Assembly (NCBI RefSeq): GCF_003018255.1
Contig: NZ_CP027440.1
Strand: one strand, 5' to 3'
Origin: Escherichia coli
Lineage (GTDB): Bacteria > Pseudomonadota > Gammaproteobacteria > Enterobacterales > Enterobacteriaceae
Length of the DNA: 64,000 nt
Position numbers and translations under genes: made by a program. Under the pieces are notes generated by a model that was not told the DNA's origin, searched no databases, and saw only the letters and a program-made list of their open reading frames with translations. The number at the start of each line of letters is the position of its first letter. Within the stretch, counting starts at the first letter, position 1. Positions 5,048-46,653 of this stretch are shown here, piece after piece.

Positions 5048-5257
5048 AAAACGCCTTAGTAAGTATTTTTCAGCTTTTCATTCTGACTGCAACGGGCAAT
5101 ATGTCTCTGTGTGGATTAAAAAAAGAGTGTCTGATAGCAGCTTCTGAAATGGTTACCTGCCGTGAGTAAATTAAAATTTTATTGACTTAGGTCACTAAAT
5201 ACTTTAACCAATATAGGCATAGCGCACAGACAGATAAAAATTACAGAGTACACAACA

Positions 5258-5326
<69 letters not shown>

Positions 5327-5344
5327 CGCGTACAGGAAACACAG

Positions 5345-5380
5345 AAAAAAGCCCGCACCTGACAGTGCGGGCTTTTTTTT
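5345..5380 (+). terminator. thr attenuator (rho-independent terminator)
   Basis: Hairpin GCCCGCAC-ctgaca-GTGCGGGC followed by an 8-T run, between thrL and thrA. Confidence 0.9.
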
Positions 5381-5406
5381 CGACCAAAGGTAACGAGGTA
5401 ACAACC

Positions 5407-7869
5407 ATGCGAGTGTTGAAGTTCGGCGGTACATCAGTGGCAAATGCAGAACGTTTTCTGCGGGTTGCCGATATTCTGGAAAGCAATGCCAGGCAGGGGC
5501 AGGTGGCCACCGTCCTCTCTGCCCCCGCCAAAATCACCAACCACCTGGTGGCGATGATTGAAAAAACCATTAGCTGCCAGGATGCTTTACCCAATATCAG
5601 CGATGCCGAACGTATTTTTGCCGAACTTTTGACGGGACTCGCCGCCGCCCAGCCGGGGTTCCCGCTGGCGCAATTGAAAACTTTCGTCGATCAGGAATTT
5701 GCCCAAATAAAACATGTCCTGCATGGCATTAGTTTGTTGGGGCAGTGCCCGGATAGCATCAACGCTGCGCTGATTTGCCGTGGCGAGAAAATGTCGATCG
5801 CCATTATGGCCGGCGTATTAGAAGCGCGCGGTCACAACGTTACCGTTATCGATCCGGTCGAAAAACTGCTGGCAGTGGGGCATTACCTCGAATCTACCGT
5901 CGATATTGCTGAGTCCACCCGCCGTATTGCGGCAAGTCGTATTCCGGCTGATCACATGGTGTTGATGGCAGGTTTCACCGCCGGTAATGAAAAAGGCGAA
6001 CTGGTGGTGCTTGGACGTAACGGTTCCGACTACTCCGCGGCGGTGCTGGCTGCCTGTTTACGCGCCGATTGTTGCGAGATTTGGACGGACGTTGACGGGG
6101 TCTATACCTGCGACCCGCGTCAGGTGCCCGATGCGAGGTTGTTGAAGTCGATGTCCTACCAGGAAGCGATGGAGCTTTCCTACTTCGGCGCTAAAGTTCT
6201 TCACCCCCGCACAATTACCCCCATCGCCCAGTTCCAGATCCCTTGCCTGATTAAAAATACCGGAAATCCTCAAGCACCAGGTACGCTCATTGGTGCCAGC
6301 CGTGATGAAGACGAATTACCGGTCAAGGGCATTTCCAATCTGAATAACATGGCAATGTTCAGCGTTTCTGGTCCGGGGATGAAAGGGATGGTCGGCATGG
6401 CGGCGCGCGTCTTTGCAGCGATGTCACGCGCCCGTATTTCCGTGGTGCTGATTACGCAATCATCTTCCGAATACAGTATCAGTTTCTGCGTTCCACAAAG
6501 CGACTGTGTGCGAGCTGAACGGGCAATGCAGGAAGAGTTCTACCTGGAACTGAAAGAAGGCTTACTGGAGCCGCTGGCGGTGACGGAACGGCTGGCCATT
6601 ATCTCGGTGGTAGGTGATGGTATGCGCACCTTGCGTGGGATCTCGGCGAAATTCTTTGCCGCGCTGGCCCGCGCCAATATCAACATTGTCGCCATTGCTC
6701 AGGGATCTTCTGAACGCTCAATCTCTGTCGTGGTAAATAACGATGATGCGACCACTGGCGTGCGCGTTACTCATCAGATGCTGTTCAATACCGATCAGGT
6801 TATCGAAGTGTTTGTGATTGGCGTCGGTGGCGTTGGCGGTGCGCTGCTGGAGCAACTGAAGCGTCAGCAAAGCTGGTTGAAGAATAAACATATCGACTTA
6901 CGTGTCTGCGGCGTTGCCAACTCGAAGGCTCTGCTCACCAATGTACATGGCCTTAATCTGGAAAACTGGCAGGAAGAACTGGCGCAAGCCAAAGAGCCGT
7001 TTAATCTCGGGCGCTTAATTCGCCTCGTGAAAGAATATCATCTGCTGAACCCGGTCATTGTTGACTGCACCTCCAGCCAGGCAGTGGCGGATCAATATGC
7101 CGACTTCCTGCGCGAAGGTTTCCACGTCGTCACGCCGAACAAAAAGGCTAACACCTCGTCGATGGATTACTACCATCTGTTGCGTCATGCGGCGGAAAAA
7201 TCGCGGCGTAAATTCCTCTATGACACCAACGTTGGGGCTGGATTACCGGTTATTGAGAACCTGCAAAATCTGCTCAATGCAGGTGATGAATTGATGAAGT
7301 TCTCCGGCATTCTTTCTGGTTCGCTTTCTTATATCTTCGGCAAGTTAGACGAAGGCATGAGTTTCTCCGAGGCGACCACGTTGGCGCGGGAAATGGGTTA
7401 TACCGAACCGGATCCGCGAGATGATCTTTCTGGTATGGATGTGGCGCGTAAACTATTGATTCTCGCTCGTGAAACGGGACGTGAACTGGAGCTGGCGGAT
7501 ATTGAAATTGAACCTGTGCTACCCGCTGAGTTTAACGCCGAGGGTGATGTTGCCGCTTTTATGGCGAATCTGTCACAGCTCGATGATCTCTTTGCCGCTC
7601 GTGTGGCGAAGGCCCGTGATGAAGGAAAAGTTTTGCGCTATGTTGGCAATATTGATGAAGATGGCGTCTGCCGCGTGAAGATTGCTGAAGTGGATGGCAA
7701 CGATCCGCTGTTCAAAGTGAAAAACGGCGAAAACGCCCTGGCCTTCTATAGCCACTATTATCAGCCGCTGCCGTTGGTGCTGCGCGGATATGGTGCGGGC
7801 AATGACGTTACAGCTGCCGGTGTCTTTGCCGATCTGCTACGTACCCTCTCATGGAAGTTAGGAGTCTGA
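5407..7869 (+). CDS. thrA: Bifunctional aspartokinase I / homoserine dehydrogenase I
   Basis: 820-aa product [17 protein letters not shown]...; start at the conserved ATG rather than the in-frame upstream extension from 5365. Confidence 0.98.
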
Positions 7870-7870
7870 C

Positions 7871-8803
7871 ATGGTTAAAGTTTATGCCCCGGCTTCCAGT
7901 GCCAATATGAGCGTCGGGTTCGATGTGCTCGGGGCGGCGGTGACACCCGTTGATGGTGCATTGCTCGGAGATGTAGTCACGGTTGAGGCGGCAGAGACAT
8001 TCAGTCTCAATAACCTCGGACGCTTTGCCGATAAGCTGCCGTCAGAACCTCGGGAAAATATCGTTTATCAGTGTTGGGAGCGTTTTTGCCAGGAGCTGGG
8101 TAAGCAAATTCCAGTGGCGATGACCCTGGAAAAGAATATGCCGATCGGCTCGGGCTTAGGCTCCAGCGCCTGCTCAGTGGTCGCGGCGCTGATGGCGATG
8201 AATGAACACTGCGGCAAGCCGCTTAATGACACCCGTTTGCTGGCTTTGATGGGCGAGCTGGAAGGGCGTATCTCCGGCAGCATTCATTACGACAACGTGG
8301 CACCGTGTTTTCTCGGTGGTATGCAGTTGATGATCGAAGAAAACGACATCATCAGCCAGCAAGTGCCAGGGTTTGATGAGTGGCTGTGGGTGCTGGCGTA
8401 TCCGGGGATTAAAGTCTCGACGGCAGAAGCCAGGGCTATTTTACCGGCGCAGTATCGCCGCCAGGATTGCATTGCGCACGGGCGACATCTGGCAGGCTTT
8501 ATTCACGCCTGCTATTCCCGTCAGCCTGAGCTTGCCGCGAAGCTGATGAAAGATGTTATCGCTGAACCCTACCGTGAACGGTTACTGCCAGGCTTCCGGC
8601 AGGCGCGGCAGGCGGTCGCGGAAATCGGCGCGGTAGCGAGCGGTATCTCCGGCTCCGGCCCGACTTTGTTCGCTCTGTGTGACAAGCCGGATACCGCCCA
8701 GCGCGTTGCCGACTGGTTGGGTAAGAACTACCTGCAAAATCAGGAAGGTTTTGTTCATATTTGCCGGCTGGATACGGCGGGCGCACGAGTACTGGAAAAC
8801 TAA
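7871..8803 (+). CDS. thrB: Homoserine kinase
   Basis: 310-aa [27 protein letters not shown]..., GHMP kinase motif [10 protein letters not shown]. Confidence 0.98.
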
Positions 8804-10090
8804 ATGAAACTCTACAATCTGAAAGATCACAATGAGCAGGTCAGCTTTGCGCAAGCCGTAACCCAGGGGTTGGGCAAAAATCAGGGGCTGTTTTTCCCGC
8901 ACGACCTGCCGGAATTCAGCCTGACTGAAATTGATGAGATGCTGAAGCTGGATTTTGTCACCCGCAGTGCGAAGATCCTCTCGGCGTTTATTGGTGATGA
9001 AATCCCGCAGGAAATCCTGGAAGAGCGCGTACGCGCGGCGTTTGTCTTCCCGGCTCCGGTCGCCAATGTTGAAAGCGATGTCGGTTGTCTGGAATTGTTC
9101 CACGGGCCAACGCTGGCATTTAAAGATTTCGGCGGTCGCTTTATGGCACAAATGCTGACCCATATTGCGGGCGATAAGCCAGTGACCATTCTGACCGCGA
9201 CCTCCGGTGATACCGGAGCGGCAGTGGCTCATGCTTTCTACGGTTTGCCGAATGTGAAAGTGGTTATCCTCTATCCACGAGGCAAAATCAGTCCACTGCA
9301 AGAAAAACTGTTCTGTACATTGGGCGGCAATATTGAAACTGTTGCCATCGACGGCGATTTCGATGCCTGTCAGGCGCTGGTGAAGCAGGCGTTTGATGAT
9401 GAAGAACTGAAAGTGGCGCTGGGGCTAAACTCAGCTAACTCGATTAACATCAGCCGTTTGCTGGCGCAGATTTGCTACTACTTTGAAGCTGTTGCGCAGC
9501 TGCCGCAGGAGGCGCGCAACCAGCTGGTTGTCTCGGTGCCAAGCGGAAACTTCGGCGATTTGACGGCGGGTCTGCTGGCGAAGTCACTCGGTCTGCCGGT
9601 GAAACGTTTTATTGCTGCGACCAACGTGAACGATACCGTGCCACGTTTCCTGCACGACGGTCAGTGGTCACCCAAAGCGACTCAGGCGACGTTATCCAAC
9701 GCGATGGACGTGAGTCAGCCGAACAACTGGCCGCGTGTGGAAGAGTTGTTCCGCCGCAAAATCTGGCAACTGAAAGAGCTGGGTTATGCAGCCGTGGATG
9801 ATGAAACCACGCAACAGACAATGCGTGAGTTAAAAGAACTGGGCTACACTTCGGAGCCGCACGCTGCCGTAGCGTATCGTGCACTGCGTGACCAGTTGCA
9901 TCCAGGCGAATATGGCTTGTTCCTCGGCACCGCGCATCCGGCGAAATTTAAAGAGAGCGTGGAAGCGATTCTCGGTGAAACGTTGGATCTGCCAAAAGAG
10001 CTGGCAGAACGTGCCGATTTACCCTTGCTTTCACATAATCTGCCCGCCGATTTTGCTGCGTTGCGTAAATTGATGATGAATCATCAGTAA
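8804..10090 (+). CDS. thrC: Threonine synthase
   Basis: 428-aa ORF MKLYNLKDHNEQVSFAQAVTQGL...; immediately follows thrB. Confidence 0.98.
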   Translation: MKLYNLKDHNEQVSFAQAVTQGLGKNQGLFFPHDLPEFSLTEIDEMLKLDFVTRSAKILSAFIGDEIPQEILEERVRAAFVFPAPVANVESDVGCLELFHGPTLAFKDFGGRFMAQMLTHIAGDKPVTILTATSGDTGAAVAHAFYGLPNVKVVILYPRGKISPLQEKLFCTLGGNIETVAIDGDFDACQALVKQAFDDEELKVALGLNSANSINISRLLAQICYYFEAVAQLPQEARNQLVVSVPSGNFGDLTAGLLAKSLGLPVKRFIAATNVNDTVPRFLHDGQWSPKATQATLSNAMDVSQPNNWPRVEELFRRKIWQLKELGYAAVDDETTQQTMRELKELGYTSEPHAAVAYRALRDQLHPGEYGLFLGTAHPAKFKESVEAILGETLDLPKELAERADLPLLSHNLPADFAALRKLMMNHQ

Positions 10091-10110
10091 TATCTATTCA
10101 TTATCTCAAT

Positions 10111-10146
10111 CAGGCCGGGTTTGCTTTTATGCAGCCCGGCTTTTTT
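10111..10146 (+). terminator. thr operon terminator
   Basis: GC-rich hairpin (GCCGGGTTTGC...GCAGCCCGGC) followed by TTTTTT. Confidence 0.8.
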
Positions 10147-10303
10147 ATGAAGAAATTATGGAGAAAAACGACAGGGAAAAAGGAGAAATGCTCAATAAAT
10201 GCGGTAACTTAGAGATTAGGATTGCGGAGAATAACAACTGCCGTTCTCATCGCGTAATCTCCGGATATCGACCCATAACGGGCAATGATAAAAGGAGTAA
10301 CCT

Positions 10304-10600
10304 GTGAAAAAGATGCAATCTATCGTACTCGCACTTTCCCTGGTTCTGGTCGCTCCCATGGCTGCGCAGGCTGCGGAAATGACGTTAGTCCCGTCAGTAA
10401 AATTACAGATAGGCGATCGTGATAATCGTGGCTATTACTGGGATGGCGGTCACTGGCGCGACCACGGCTGGTGGAAACAACATTATGAATGGCGAGGCAA
10501 TCGCTGGCACCCATATGGACCGCCGCCATCGCCGCGCCATAACAAGCACAATGATCATCGTGGCGATCATCGTCCGGGGCCTGACAAACATCATCGCTAA
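10304..10600 (+). CDS. yaaX: Small secreted His/Trp/Arg-rich protein YaaX (DUF2502)
   Basis: 98-aa ORF with signal peptide [23 protein letters not shown], then a low-complexity H/W/R/G/D-rich mature region. Confidence 0.85.
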
Positions 10601-10607
10601 ATATCAA

Positions 10608-10627
10608 TGCCGGATTGCCATCCGGCA
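10608..10627. terminator. Palindromic hairpin between convergent yaaX and yaaA (putative bidirectional terminator)
   Basis: Perfect inverted repeat TGCCGGAT-tgcc-ATCCGGCA in a 39-bp intergenic gap; no strong U-tract. Confidence 0.4.
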
Positions 10628-10639
10628 TTGACTGCAAAC

Positions 10640-11416
10640 TTAACGCTGCTCGTAGCGTTTAAACACCAGTTCGCCGTTGCTGGAGGAAGCTTCATCAAAG
10701 AAGTAACCTTCGCTATTAAAACCAGTCAGTTGCTCTGGTTTGGTCAGCCGATTTTCAATAATGAAACGACTCATCAGACCGCGTGCTTTCTTAGCGTAGA
10801 AGCTGATGATCTTAAATTTGCCGTTCTTCTCATCGAGGAACACCGGCTTGATAATCTCGGCATTCAATTTCTTCGGCTTCACCGATTTAAAATACTCATC
10901 TGACGCCAGATTAATCACCACATTATCGCCTTGTGCTGCGAGCGCCTCGTTCAGCTTGTTGGTGATGATATCTCCCCAGAATTGATACAGATCTTTCCCT
11001 CGGGCATTCTCAAGACGGATCCCCATTTCCAGACGATAAGGCTGCATTAAATCGAGCGGGCGCAGTACGCCATACAAGCCGGAAAGCATTCGCAAATGCT
11101 GTTGGGCAAAATCGAAATCGTCTTCGCTGAAGGTTTCGGCCTGCAAGCCGGTGTAGACATCACCTTTGAATGCCAGAATCGCCTGGCGGGCATTCTCCGG
11201 CGTGAAATCTGGCTGCCAGTCATGAAAGCGAGCGGCGTTGATACCCGCCAGTTTGTCGCTGATGCGCATCAGCGTGCTAATCTGCGGAGGCGTCAGTTTC
11301 CGCGCTTCATGGATCAACTGCTGGGAATTGTCTAACAGCTCCGGCAGCGTATAGCGCGTGGTGGGCAACGGGCTTTGGTAATCGAGCGTTTTCGCAGGTG
11401 AAATAAGAATCAGCAT
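10640..11416 (-). CDS. yaaA: Peroxide stress resistance protein YaaA (DUF328)
   Basis: 258-aa [20 protein letters not shown]... Confidence 0.93.
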
Positions 11417-11485
11417 ATCCAGTCCTTGCAGGAAATTTATGCCGACTTTAGCAAAAAAAGAGAATGAGTTGATCGATAGTTGTGA

Positions 11486-12916
11486 TTACTCCTGCGAAAC
11501 ATCATCCCACGCGTCCGGAGAAAGCTGGCGACCGATATCCGGATAACGCAACGGATCAAACACCGGGCGCACGCCGAGTTTACGCTGGCGTAGATAATCA
11601 CTGGCAATGGTATGAACCACAGGCGAGAGCAGTAATATGGCGGTCAAATTGGTAATAGCCATGCAGGCCATTATGATATCTGCCAGTTGCCACATCAGCG
11701 GAAGACTTAGCAAGGTGCCGCCGATGACCGTTGCGAAGGTGCAGATCCGCAGACACCAGATCGCTTTAGGGTTGTTCAGGCGTAAGAAGAAGAGATTGTT
11801 TTCGGCATAAATGTAGTTGGCAACGATGGAGCTGAAGGCAAACAGAATAACCACGAGGGTAACAAACTCAGCACCCCAGGAACCCATGAGTACCCGCATC
11901 GCCTTCTGGATAAGCTGAATACCTTCCAGCGGCATGTAGGTTGTGCCGTTACCCGCCAGTAATATCAGCATGGCGCTTGCCGTACAGATGACCAGGGTGT
12001 CGATAAAAATGCCAATCATCTGGACAATTCCTTGCGCTGCGGGATGCGGAGGCCAGGACGCAGCCGCCGCTGCCGCGTTTGGCGTCGACCCCATTCCCGC
12101 CTCATTGGAAAACATACTGCGCTGAAAACCGTTAGTAATCGCCTGGCTTAAGGTATATCCCGCCGCGCCGCCTGCCGCTTCCTGCCAGCCAAAAGCACTC
12201 TCAAAAATAGACCAAATGACGTGGGGAAGTTGCCCGATATTCATTACGCATATTACCAGGCTGGTCAGTACCCAGATTATCGCCATCAACGGGACAAACC
12301 CCTGCATGAGCCGGGCGACGCCATGAAGACCGCGAGTGATTGCCAGCAGAGCAAAGACAGCAAGAATAATGCCTGTCACCAGCGGGGGAAAATCAAAAGA
12401 AAAACTCAGGGCTCGGGCAACGGCGTTCGCCTGAACTCCGCTGAAAATTATGCCGTAGGCGATGAGCAAAAAGAGGGCGAACAGAACGCCCATCCAGCGC
12501 ATCCCCAGCCCGCGCGCCATATACCATGCCGGTCCGCCACGAAACTGCCCATTAACGTCACGTTCTTTATAAAGTTGTGCAAGGGAACATTCGGCAAACG
12601 AGGTCGCCATGCCGATAAACGCGGCAACCCACATCCAGAAGACGGCACCTGGTCCACCGGTGGTAATAGCCAGCGCAACGCCAGCCAGGTTGCCGCTACC
12701 CACGCGCGCCGCAAGACTGGTACACAATGACTGAAATGAGGTTAAACCGCCTGGCTGTGGATGAATGCTATTTTTAAGACTTTTGCCAAACTGGCGGATG
12801 TAGCGAAACTGCACAAATCCGGTGCGAAAAGTGAACCAACAACCTGCGCCGAAGAGCAGGTAAATCATTACCGATCCCCAAAGGACGCTGTTAATAAAGG
12901 AGAAAAAATCTGGCAT
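11486..12916 (-). CDS. yaaJ: Sodium:alanine symporter family transporter
   Basis: 476-aa polytopic membrane ORF MPDFFSFINSVLWGSVMIYLLFGAG... Confidence 0.93.
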   Translation of the reverse strand: MPDFFSFINSVLWGSVMIYLLFGAGCWFTFRTGFVQFRYIRQFGKSLKNSIHPQPGGLTSFQSLCTSLAARVGSGNLAGVALAITTGGPGAVFWMWVAAFIGMATSFAECSLAQLYKERDVNGQFRGGPAWYMARGLGMRWMGVLFALFLLIAYGIIFSGVQANAVARALSFSFDFPPLVTGIILAVFALLAITRGLHGVARLMQGFVPLMAIIWVLTSLVICVMNIGQLPHVIWSIFESAFGWQEAAGGAAGYTLSQAITNGFQRSMFSNEAGMGSTPNAAAAAASWPPHPAAQGIVQMIGIFIDTLVICTASAMLILLAGNGTTYMPLEGIQLIQKAMRVLMGSWGAEFVTLVVILFAFSSIVANYIYAENNLFFLRLNNPKAIWCLRICTFATVIGGTLLSLPLMWQLADIIMACMAITNLTAILLLSPVVHTIASDYLRQRKLGVRPVFDPLRYPDIGRQLSPDAWDDVSQE

Positions 12917-13194
12917 GCATATCCCTCTTATTGCCGGTCGCGATGACTTTCCTGTGTAAACGTTACCAATTGTTTAAGAAGTATATACGCTACGAGGTAC
13001 TTGATAACTTCTGCGTAGCATACATGAGGTTTTGTATAAAAATGGCGGGCGATATCAACGCAGTGTCAGAAATCCGAAACAGTCTCGCCTGGCGATAACC
13101 GTCTTGTCGGCGGTTGCGCTGACGTTGCGTCGTGATATCATCAGGGCAGACCGGTTACATCCCCCTAACAAGCTGTTTAAAGAGAAATACTATC

Positions 13195-14148
13195 ATGACG
13201 GACAAATTGACCTCCCTTCGTCAGTACACCACCGTAGTGGCCGACACTGGGGACATCGCGGCAATGAAGCTGTATCAACCGCAGGATGCCACAACCAACC
13301 CTTCTCTCATTCTTAACGCAGCGCAGATTCCGGAATACCGTAAGTTGATTGATGATGCTGTCGCCTGGGCGAAACAGCAGAGCAACGATCGCGCGCAGCA
13401 GATCGTGGACGCGACCGACAAACTGGCAGTAAATATTGGTCTGGAAATCCTGAAACTGGTTCCGGGCCGTATCTCAACTGAAGTTGATGCGCGTCTTTCC
13501 TATGACACCGAAGCGTCAATTGCGAAAGCAAAACGCCTGATCAAACTCTACAACGATGCAGGGATTAGCAACGATCGTATTCTGATCAAACTGGCTTCTA
13601 CCTGGCAGGGTATCCGTGCTGCAGAACAGCTGGAAAAAGAAGGTATTAACTGTAACCTGACCCTGCTGTTCTCCTTCGCTCAGGCTCGTGCTTGTGCGGA
13701 AGCGGGCGTGTTCCTGATCTCGCCGTTTGTTGGCCGTATTCTTGACTGGTACAAAGCGAATACCGACAAGAAAGAGTACGCTCCGGCAGAAGATCCGGGC
13801 GTGGTTTCTGTATCTGAAATCTACCAGTACTACAAAGAGCACGGTTATGAAACCGTGGTGATGGGCGCAAGCTTCCGTAACATCGGCGAAATTCTGGAAC
13901 TGGCAGGCTGCGACCGTCTGACCATCGCACCGGCGCTGCTGAAAGAGCTGGCTGAGAGCGAAGGGGCTATCGAACGTAAACTGTCTTACACCGGCGAAGT
14001 GAAAGCGCGTCCGGCGCGTATCACTGAGTCCGAGTTCCTGTGGCAGCATAACCAGGATCCAATGGCAGTAGATAAACTGGCGGAAGGTATCCGTAAGTTT
14101 GCTGTTGACCAGGAAAAACTGGAAAAAATGATCGGCGATCTGCTGTAA
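13195..14148 (+). CDS. talB: Transaldolase B
   Basis: 317-aa product [40 protein letters not shown]...; conserved start preferred over the upstream ATG at 13132. Confidence 0.97.
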
Positions 14149-14156
14149 TCATTCTT

Positions 14157-14190
14157 AGCGTGACCGGGAAGTCGGTCACGCTACCTTTTC
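14157..14190 (+). terminator. talB rho-independent terminator
   Basis: Hairpin AGCGTGACCG-ggaagtc-GGTCACGCT followed by a T-rich tract. Confidence 0.75.
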
Positions 14191-14262
14191 TGAAGCCTGT
14201 CTGTCACTCCCTTCGCAGTGTATCATTCTGTTTAACGAGACTGTTTAAACGGAAAAATCTTG

Positions 14263-14850
14263 ATGAATACTTTACGTATTGGCTTAGTTTCCATCTCTGA
14301 TCGCGCATCCAGCGGCGTTTATCAGGATAAAGGCATCCCTGCGCTGGAAGAATGGCTGACATCGGCGCTAACCACGCCGTTTGAACTGGAAACCCGCTTA
14401 ATCCCCGATGAGCAGGCGATCATCGAGCAAACGTTGTGTGAGCTGGTGGATGAAATGAGTTGCCATCTGGTGCTCACCACGGGCGGAACTGGCCCGGCGC
14501 GTCGTGACGTAACGCCCGATGCGACGCTGGCAGTAGCGGACCGCGAGATGCCTGGCTTTGGTGAACAGATGCGCCAGATCAGCCTGCATTTTGTACCAAC
14601 TGCGATCCTTTCGCGTCAGGTGGGCGTGATTCGCAAACAGGCGCTGATCCTTAACTTACCCGGTCAGCCGAAGTCGATTAAAGAGACGCTGGAAGGCGTG
14701 AAGGACGCTGCGGGTAACGTTGTGGTGCATGGTATTTTTGCCAGCGTACCGTACTGCATTCAGTTGCTGGAAGGGCCATACATTGAAACGGCACCGGAAG
14801 TGGTTGCAGCATTCAGACCGAAGAGTGCAAGACGCGACGTTAGCGAATAA
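14263..14850 (+). CDS. mog: Molybdopterin adenylyltransferase
   Basis: 195-aa ORF MNTLRIGLVSISDRASSGVYQDKGIPALEEWL... Confidence 0.95.
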   Translation: MNTLRIGLVSISDRASSGVYQDKGIPALEEWLTSALTTPFELETRLIPDEQAIIEQTLCELVDEMSCHLVLTTGGTGPARRDVTPDATLAVADREMPGFGEQMRQISLHFVPTAILSRQVGVIRKQALILNLPGQPKSIKETLEGVKDAAGNVVVHGIFASVPYCIQLLEGPYIETAPEVVAAFRPKSARRDVSE

Positions 14851-14877
14851 AAAAATCCCCCCGAGCGGGGGGATCTC
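14848..14877. terminator. Bidirectional terminator between convergent mog and satP
   Basis: A-run followed by hairpin ATCCCCCC-gagc-GGGGGGAT. Confidence 0.7.
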
Positions 14878-14884
14878 AAAACAA

Positions 14885-15451
14885 TTAATGGGATTCACCA
14901 ATCGGCAGAACGGTGCGACCAAACTGCTCGTTCAGTACTTCACCCATCGCCAGATAGATTGCGCTGGCACCGCAGATCAGACCAATCCAGCCGGCAAAGT
15001 GGATGATTGCGGCGTTACCGGCAATGTTACCGATCGCCAGCAGGGCAAACAGCACGGTCAGGCTAAAGAAAACGAATTGCAGAACGCGTGCGCCTTTCAG
15101 CGTGCCGAAGAACATAAACAGCGTAAATACGCCCCACAGACCCAGGTAGACACCAAGGAACTGTGCATTTGGCGCATCGGTCAGACCCAGTTTCGGCATC
15201 AGCAGAATCGCAACCAGCGTCAGCCAGAAAGAACCGTAAGAGGTGAATGCGGTTAAACCGAAAGTGTTGCCTTTTTTGTACTCCAGCAGACCAGCAAAAA
15301 TTTGCGCGATGCCGCCGTAGAAAATGCCCATGGCAAGAATAATACCGTCCAGAGCAAAATAACCCACGTTGTGCAGGTTAAGCAGAATGGTGGTCATGCC
15401 GAAGCCCATCAGGCCCAGCGGTGCCGGATTAGCCAACTTAGTGTTGCCCAT
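14885..15451 (-). CDS. satP: Succinate-acetate/proton symporter SatP (YaaH)
   Basis: 188-aa membrane ORF MGNTKLANPAPLGLMGFGMTTILLNLHN... (GPR1/FUN34/YaaH family). Confidence 0.95.
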   Translation of the reverse strand: MGNTKLANPAPLGLMGFGMTTILLNLHNVGYFALDGIILAMGIFYGGIAQIFAGLLEYKKGNTFGLTAFTSYGSFWLTLVAILLMPKLGLTDAPNAQFLGVYLGLWGVFTLFMFFGTLKGARVLQFVFFSLTVLFALLAIGNIAGNAAIIHFAGWIGLICGASAIYLAMGEVLNEQFGRTVLPIGESH

Positions 15452-15599
15452 AATTCCTCAAAAATCATCATCGAATGAATGGTGAAATAATTTCCCTGAA
15501 TAACTGTAGTGTTTTCAGGGCGCGGCATAATAATCAGCCAGTGGGGCAGTGTCTACGATCTTTTGAGGGGAAAATGAAAATTTTCCCCGGTTTCCGGTA

Positions 15600-44456: not shown

Positions 44457-44705
44457 TTAATTCCACTGTGAAAACGAATATTTATTTTGCGTTCCCGTTT
44501 GTTTTATTTTTGTTAACATTTAATATAATTATTATTAACCTCGTGGACGCGTTAATGGCTAACTCATAATGGGTATTCAATAAGCTGCATTCTGTGATTG
44601 TTATCACATTTTTGTTTCGGGTGAATAGAGGGCATTTTTTTCGTTAATTTTGATTATTAATCAGTTTGTTATGCTCTGTTGTGAGTAAAAAAATAGCATC
44701 TGACT

Positions 44706-44926: not shown

Positions 44927-45697
44927 ATGAAGATTATTACTTGCTATAAGTGCGTGCCTGATGAACAGGATATTGCGGTCAATAATGCTGATGGTTCATT
45001 AGACTTCAGCAAAGCCGATGCCAAAATAAGCCAATACGATCTCAACGCTATTGAAGCGGCTTGCCAGCTAAAGCAACAGGCAGCAGAGGCGCAGGTGACG
45101 GCCTTAAGTGTGGGCGGTAAAGCCCTGACCAACGCCAAAGGGCGTAAAGATGTGCTATCGCGCGGTCCGGATGAACTGATTGTGGTGATTGATGACCAGT
45201 TCGAGCAGGCACTGCCGCAACAAACGGCGAGCGTACTTGCTGCAGCCGCTCAGAAAGCAGGCTTTGATTTGATCCTCTGTGGCGATGGTTCTTCCGACCT
45301 TTATGCCCAGCAGGTTGGTTTGCTGGTAGGCGAAATCCTTAATATTCCGGCAGTTAACGGCGTCAGCAAAATTATCTCCCTGACTGCAGATACCCTCACC
45401 GTTGAGCGCGAACTGGAAGATGAAACAGAAACCTTAAGCATTCCGCTGCCTGCGGTTGTTGCTGTTTCCACTGATATCAACTCCCCACAAATTCCTTCGA
45501 TGAAAGCCATTCTCGGCGCGGCGAAAAAGCCAGTCCAGGTATGGTCGGCGGCGGATATCGGTTTTAACGCAGAGGCAGCCTGGTCAGAACAACAGGTTGC
45601 TGCGCCGAAACAGCGCGAGCGTCAGCGCATCGTGATTGAAGGCGACGGCGAAGAACAGATCGCCGCATTTGCTGAAAATCTTCGCAAAGTCATTTAA
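44927..45697 (+). CDS. fixA: Electron transfer flavoprotein beta-subunit homolog FixA
   Basis: 256-aa product [27 protein letters not shown]...; the upstream in-frame extension (44864) is not conserved. Confidence 0.95.
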
Positions 45698-45711
45698 TTA
45701 CAGGGGATGCT

Positions 45712-46653
45712 ATGAACACGTTTTCTCAAGTCTGGGTATTCAGCGATACCCCTTCTCGTCTGCCGGAACTGATGAACGGTGCGCAGGCTTTAGCTAATCA
45801 AATCAACACGTTCGTCCTCAATGATGCCGACGGCGCACAGGCAATCCAGCTCGGCGCTAATCATGTCTGGAAATTAAGCGGCAAACCGGACGAGCGGATG
45901 ATCGAAGATTACGCCGGTGTCATGGCTGACACTATTCGCCAGCACGGCGCAGACGGTCTGGTGCTGTTGCCAAACACCCGTCGCGGCAAATTACTGGCGG
46001 CGAAACTGGGTTACCGCCTTAACGCGGCGGTGTCTAACGATGCCAGCGCTGTTAGCGTGCAGGACGGTAAAGCGACAGTGAAACACATGGTTTACGGCGG
46101 TCTGGCGATTGGCGAAGAACGCATTGCCACGCCGTATGCGGTTCTGACCATCAGCAGCGGCACGTTCGATGTGGCTCAGCCAGACGCGTCACGCACTGGC
46201 GAAACGCACACCGTGGAGTGGCAGGCTCCGGCTGTGGCGATTACCCGCACGGCAACCCAGGCGCGTCAGAGCAACAGCGTCGATCTCGACAAAGCCCGCC
46301 TGGTGGTCAGCGTTGGTCGCGGTATTGGCAGCAAAGAGAACATTGCGCTGGCAGAACAGCTTTGCAAGGCGATAGGTGCGGAGTTGGCCTGTTCTCGTCC
46401 GGTGGCGGAAAACGAAAAATGGATGGAGCACGAACGCTATGTCGGTATCTCCAACCTGATGCTGAAACCTGAACTGTACCTGGCGGTGGGGATCTCCGGG
46501 CAGATCCAGCACATGGTTGGCGCTAATGCGTCGCAAACCATTTTCGCCATCAACAAAGATAAAAATGCGCCGATCTTCCAGTACGCGGATTACGGCATTG
46601 TTGGCGACGCCGTGAAGATCCTTCCGGCACTGACCGCAGCTTTAGCGCGTTGA
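45712..46653 (+). CDS. fixB: Electron transfer flavoprotein alpha-subunit homolog FixB
   Basis: 313-aa [33 protein letters not shown]... Confidence 0.97.

Follow-up and report, generated by a model that had tools for sequence, protein, structure and literature searches.

The thr operon leader region

The window, by which we mean the whole 64,000-nucleotide stretch of Escherichia coli DNA that was analysed, carries the thr operon with the leader peptide gene thrL, an attenuator hairpin and its T tract located ahead of thrA, thrB and thrC (Table 1). Eight threonine and four isoleucine codons were counted in thrL, and the annotations of ATCC 8739 and JNE23-011 have this gene at the corresponding position. 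Pfam records on the identical genes of L125 included Leader_Thr for thrL as well as domains for thrA.

Table 1. Features of the thr operon and its attenuator in the window
Feature	Position	Strand	Basis
thrL, 21-aa thr operon leader peptide	5261..5326	+	ORF list; same translation as thrL of MG1655
Thr_leader RNA element (Rfam RF00506), comprising the upstream leader helix and the terminator hairpin	5262..5381	+	
Attenuator (intrinsic terminator) hairpin	5343..5380	+	Fold energy and conservation
U/T tract of the attenuator, exactly 8 T, polymorphic homopolymer	5373..5380	+	Direct reading
5' UTR from the T tract to the thrA ATG, 26 nt	5381..5406	+	Direct reading
thrA, aspartate kinase I / homoserine dehydrogenase I, 820 aa	5407..7869	+	Translation comparison
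thrB	7871-8803	+	ORF list; protein identical to that of JNE23-011
thrC	8804-10090	+	ORF list; protein identical to that of JNE23-011

The Thr_leader model was matched over its full length (model positions 1-118) by cmscan with 121 bits relative to a gathering score of 55 (E=1.1e-24), and the thr attenuator at 5262-5381 is far from a chance match. The minimum free energy fold of 5219-5382 contained both the upstream helix and the terminator. Within the terminator hairpin a GC-rich core of 8 bp was formed between 5351-5358 and 5365-5372, closing a 6-nt loop at 5359-5364, and the A run at 5344-5349, upstream of the core, could pair with the T run and lengthen the stem. The hairpin at 5343-5380 had a folding energy of -24.3 kcal/mol (z=-7.3 compared with shuffled sequences) and its core was kept in 116 Enterobacterales species among the matches listed. 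An earlier note on this DNA had described exactly 8 T after the attenuator hairpin, and direct reading of 5373-5380 bore this out, the order being AAAAAAGCCCGCACCTGACAGTGCGGGC, then the eight T and then CGACC. A Shine-Dalgarno-like GAGG is located at 5395-5398 within the 5' UTR.

The region thus described combines the covariance model score with a Thr- and Ile-coding leader ORF and a terminator with a U tract before thrA, followed by thrB and thrC, all of which belong to a Thr_leader element. Canonical Rho-independent terminators have a GC-rich stem-loop with a U tract of 7-9 nt directly after it (PMC3643576, PMC3993855), and the hairpin and U-rich tract of the window had the same arrangement. 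The upstream A run that mirrors the U run is also shared with canonical intrinsic terminators, whereas the thr attenuator is regulated and lies inside a leader and the canonical terminators lie at operon ends. The stretch 5261-5406 is the classical thr operon attenuator, an element already known.

A simple terminator scan called the hairpin on the minus strand only (5345-5378). This call was rejected as a tool artefact, as the scan of the plus strand takes the A:U extension as stem and is left with too few tail T. The A6 run upstream, mirroring the T run, gives the hairpin the shape of a bidirectional terminator, and no converging gene is present. According to the title of a 1995 paper by Yang, Scott and Gardner, listed among the references of PMC4824070, termination does not require the upstream A residues.

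Comparison with K-12 and near relatives

In MG1655 (NC_000913.3) thrL is located at 190-255 and thrA begins at 337, with 9 T at 302-310 and a spacer of 81 nt. The window has 80 nt (5327-5406) between the thrL stop (5326) and the thrA ATG (5407), and alignment with MG1655 placed the one-base difference wholly inside the T run. The K-12 tract of 9 T and the spacer lengths of 80 and 81 nt that the earlier note had given were therefore correct, and the alignment it proposed found 9 T in the reference rather than 8 T in both. From the transcription start, which following EcoCyc we take to be at 148 in K-12 and at 5219 in the window, to the thrA ATG the leader was the same as in MG1655 except for the one T. 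No difference from MG1655 was seen in thrL, in the 26-nt 5' UTR or in the GAGG, and the 9-T version of the hairpin had the same structure and energy (-24.3 kcal/mol).

The thr attenuators of K-12 and the window share their locus, leader peptide, hairpin, leader sequence and downstream thrABC genes, and differ in having 9 T and 8 T, respectively, and in the thrABC coding sequence, where approximately 70 substitutions relative to MG1655 (approximately 1.3% divergence) indicate that the window is not K-12. The nearest complete genomes were those of JNE23-011 and JNE112863, human isolates from Japan with 99.8% identity over thrABC. JNE23-011 has 8 T, its ungapped alignment with the window passing straight through the tract, and thrA of JNE112863 starts at record position 336, as in the 8-T records.

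The window also agreed in its 8 T with the thr attenuators of O157:H7, ATCC 8739, strain C, ATCC 25922, Salmonella and Citrobacter, and in the 8-T E. coli strains the entire 80-nt spacer was identical to that of the window. Outside Escherichia the loop was usually one base longer (e.g. GCCCGCACCTGAACAGTGCGGGC) and the 5' UTR differed.

T-tract length in E. coli and the Enterobacterales

The exact spacer of each T length was searched against 5426 complete E. coli genomes. The 8-T spacer was matched in approximately 3725 of 5421 genomes (~69%), the 9-T spacer in approximately 1652 (~30%), the 7-T spacer in 16 and the 10-T spacer in 12, each class including about seven partial-coverage records. 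This sample of complete genomes is biased, with many K-12 derivatives or laboratory strains and clinical clones; despite this bias and the partial records, most E. coli clearly carry the 8-T allele. Strains with 8 T included O157:H7, O55:H7, ATCC 25922, HS, IAI39, strain C, ATCC 8739 (Crooks) and a strain labelled B-ZidR, while 9 T was found in K-12 derivatives (MG1655, C600, MC4100) and on a haplotype common to an O25b:H4-ST131 strain.

When species-representative genomes were scanned for the hairpin core, at least 120 loci were identified, 116 of which had a thrA start (M[RK][VI]LKFGG...) no more than 120 nt downstream. Among the matches listed, these 116 loci had 8 T in 98 cases, 9 T in 15, mostly from Yersinia and Rahnella, and 7 T in three. 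The listed matches with 8 T included E. whittamii, Salmonella enterica subsp. arizonae and diarizonae, most Citrobacter and Enterobacter and the GTDB representative of E. coli. E. albertii also had 8 T, on a contig ending at the tract. The 26 nt that separate the end of the T tract from thrA in the window were the commonest distance in the outgroups as well (47 of the 116 species among the matches listed).

The framing of the earlier note implied that the 8 T of the window was an oddity and a departure from the norm. This view did not survive the comparison, since 8 T is carried by about 69% of the complete E. coli genomes as opposed to about 30% with 9 T, and by 98 of the 116 Enterobacterales species among the matches listed. 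The 8 T found here is ordinary natural variation. Its prevalence across the Enterobacterales argues that 8 T is conserved and most likely the ancestral state, with the 9 T of K-12 as a derived minority allele. K-12 is the minority form at this tract, with 9 T where about two thirds of E. coli and most related species have 8 T, and a one-base difference from K-12 in the thr T homopolymer should not be taken for a mutation, engineering or an error. The thr attenuator of the window is a textbook element with the commonest allele, and the difference matters little.

Attenuation and termination with 8 T and 9 T

Ribosome-mediated attenuation of the thr operon is established for K-12, and the sequence identity between the two leaders suggests that the same mechanism operates in the window. 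With an ample supply of charged tRNA-Thr and tRNA-Ile, the ribosome would translate the Thr- and Ile-rich thrL quickly, the hairpin at 5343-5380 would form with its U tract and RNA polymerase would terminate before thrA. Stalling of the ribosome in thrL would instead allow an alternative pairing that blocks the terminator, and thrABC would be transcribed. The antiterminator pairing itself is predicted for the window from its identity with the K-12 leader.

We consider it very likely that the locus is the known thrLABC attenuator of a non-K-12 strain, in which 8 T is the common and ancestral form, 9 T has been derived by slippage and the two lengths terminate about equally. A near equality of 8 T and 9 T in termination efficiency would follow from the unchanged hairpin, from the normal release of the transcript 7-9 nt after the stem and from the wide distribution of both lengths in nature. 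The attenuated leader RNA of K-12 is about 162 nt long and would thus end between the 7th and the 9th U. With a leader of that length the ninth T would lie at or past the release point, and little or no difference between the 8-T and 9-T forms would be expected.

Alternatively, the shorter 8-U tract could measurably change termination, such that basal thrABC expression in 8-T strains differs from that of K-12, although we regard this as unlikely. It is accepted that termination efficiency depends on the length and composition of the U tract (PMC5558911, PMC4824070). Sequences at the edge of the transcription bubble also matter, as described by a GC(U)7RU motif and the phase of the U-tract flanks, and one U inserted in lambda tR2 increased termination by approximately 50% with a better GC(U)7RU phase (bioRxiv 10.64898/2026.05.29.728758). 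By our reading of the sequence, the site 11 nt past the closing G of the thr stem would be U with 9 T and C with 8 T, and the GC(U)7RU motif would slightly favour 9 T (U at -1). The elemental-pause consensus has Y at -1 and G at +1 and, opposite to the GC(U)7RU argument, would slightly favour 8 T (C at -1, G at +1). As the two motif arguments are opposed, the direction of any effect of 8 T relative to 9 T is not predictable. Against a change in termination, the hairpin energy is the same and the rest of the leader identical, both lengths fall inside the canonical range of 7-9 nt, and 8 T is the form both of most E. coli and of most of the outgroup species among the matches listed. Since 8 T is conserved and in the majority, if an effect exists then 8 T would be the norm and K-12 the strain that departs from it.

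A single T may have a modest, context-dependent effect on termination. If it is true that read-through differs between 8 T and 9 T, comparisons of basal threonine-pathway expression between K-12 and chassis strains such as C and Crooks (ATCC 8739) would be affected. The length of the T tract at the thr attenuator was the subject of a primary study by Lynn, Kasper and Gardner in 1988 (J Biol Chem 263:472), and Sipos et al. 2007 is reportedly a T-tract mutagenesis study of pyrBI. The papers searched that cite these studies made general statements, with nothing quantitative on the thr attenuator.

Origin of the length difference

Tracts of 9 T were found on two haplotypes, represented by MG1655 and FDAARGOS_1266, which differ at 46 of 1500 sites downstream of the tract. 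The flanks of FDAARGOS_1266 are identical to those of an O25b:H4-ST131 strain, and each of the two 9-T haplotypes has close relatives with 8 T. Differences of one T were also present on identical flanks. The T run was the only difference over 5464 bp between the window (8 T) and the draft genome GCA_031299525.2 (7 T), and FDAARGOS_1266 (9 T) had the same flanks as ST131 strain 4224 (NZ_CP103592.1) with 10 T. The K-12 derivative DH1 (NC_017638.1, 256-337) is recorded with 10 T while its close relatives have 9 T. A further T run at 44635-44642 in the caiT-fixA intergenic region has 7 T in the window and 6 T in JNE23-011, and the T run at 44635 was the only other indel between these two in 49.5 kb.

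The occurrence of 9 T on two unrelated haplotypes together with the one-T differences on identical flanks argues for recurrent slippage, and the variation in the tract from 7 to 10 T points to the same process in this homopolymer. Replication slippage within the run would repeatedly have changed its length. The 10 T of DH1 and of ST131 strain 4224 would be either recent slippage or assembly error, and assembly error may contribute to some of the rare-class (7-T and 10-T) calls. It has also been considered that the T tract serves as a mutational tuning knob, in which slippage would slightly shift basal thrABC read-through, selection would favour different settings in different niches and the 9 T of K-12 would be one setting, an idea we find very doubtful.

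It is very improbable that the 8 T of the window is itself a homopolymer sequencing or assembly error in a strain that truly has 9 T. Homopolymer length errors are frequent in some assemblies, and the 7 T of the draft that otherwise matches the window exactly over 5.4 kb and the 10 T recorded for DH1 suggest that some deposited counts are unreliable. However, JNE23-011 as the closest complete genome likewise carries 8 T, the thrA position in JNE112863 agrees with this length, and 8 T is found in approximately 3700 independent genomes and in most outgroup species among the matches listed. The tract can be accounted for without an error, and an assembly error was rejected given the 8 T of the closest relative and of the majority of genomes.

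ThrA differences and an upstream substitution

The amino acid differences from K-12 that the earlier note seemed to see in ThrA are real. Only three were found relative to MG1655, namely G57C (in TISCQD) and Q591L and Y594H (in YYHLLRH). L591 and H594 are common to ATCC 8739 and JNE23-011 and by this comparison are common alleles. G57C results from a G>T substitution at 5575 in thrA codon 57, and Gly57 was present in 112 of the 116 Enterobacterales species among the matches listed. Cys57 (5575T) was absent from all 5424 matching complete E. coli genomes. The same was true, in a set of the same size, of a second substitution, 5149 C>A, which is located approximately 70 nt upstream of the position we take to be the K-12-equivalent thr transcription start and is probably a neutral lineage marker. 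Both substitutions are carried by GCA_031299525.2, and the exact ThrA protein was found on 55 contigs of public assemblies. Both substitutions mark a rare natural lineage, C57 being its allele at a conserved glycine, and neither is a sign of engineering. On the ThrA differences this agrees with the earlier note, which had ascribed them to ordinary strain polymorphism.

A thr control region altered deliberately or selectively at the T tract, 5149 and codon 57, as in a threonine-producer lineage, deserves almost no credence, since publicly deposited assemblies of isolates carry this haplotype: 5149A and 5575T do fall within 430 bp around the control region, are absent from the complete E. coli genomes and in the latter case affect a conserved glycine, but the exact ThrA allele comes from assemblies deposited as ordinary E. 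coli isolates, one draft genome equals the window over 5464 bp with both SNPs included and differs by its 7 T, the nearest complete genome is that of a human isolate, and hairpin, leader peptide gene and 5' UTR all have their intact wild-type form. The positions of S345F and G433R, which we take to be feedback-resistance sites of thrA, are unchanged in the ThrA of the window, and no vector or marker sequence was evident in the thr region.

Differences from JNE23-011 along the window

Approximately 99 differences between the window and JNE23-011 were located before position 5830 and a single one in 5830-15490, and the window matches MG1655 between 5575 and 5844. This pattern of differences around 5830, together with the match to MG1655, places a recombination breakpoint inside thrA and makes the window a mosaic typical of E. 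coli. Over 5830-64000 the window was separated from JNE23-011 by seven SNPs scattered along the sequence, by a single homopolymer indel and by a recombination patch of 825 bp. The last of these was located at 45433-46257 in fixA-fixB, where 28 substitutions in 825 bp stood within an otherwise near-identical 49.5 kb, and looks like a short recombination patch.

At 10537-10619 the 3' end of yaaX and the yaaX-yaaA spacer are approximately 110 nt shorter than in MG1655 (K-12 5467-5661) and contain several substitutions. The extra sequence of K-12 may be a repeat element present in K-12 only. JNE23-011 has the same yaaX-yaaA version as the window.
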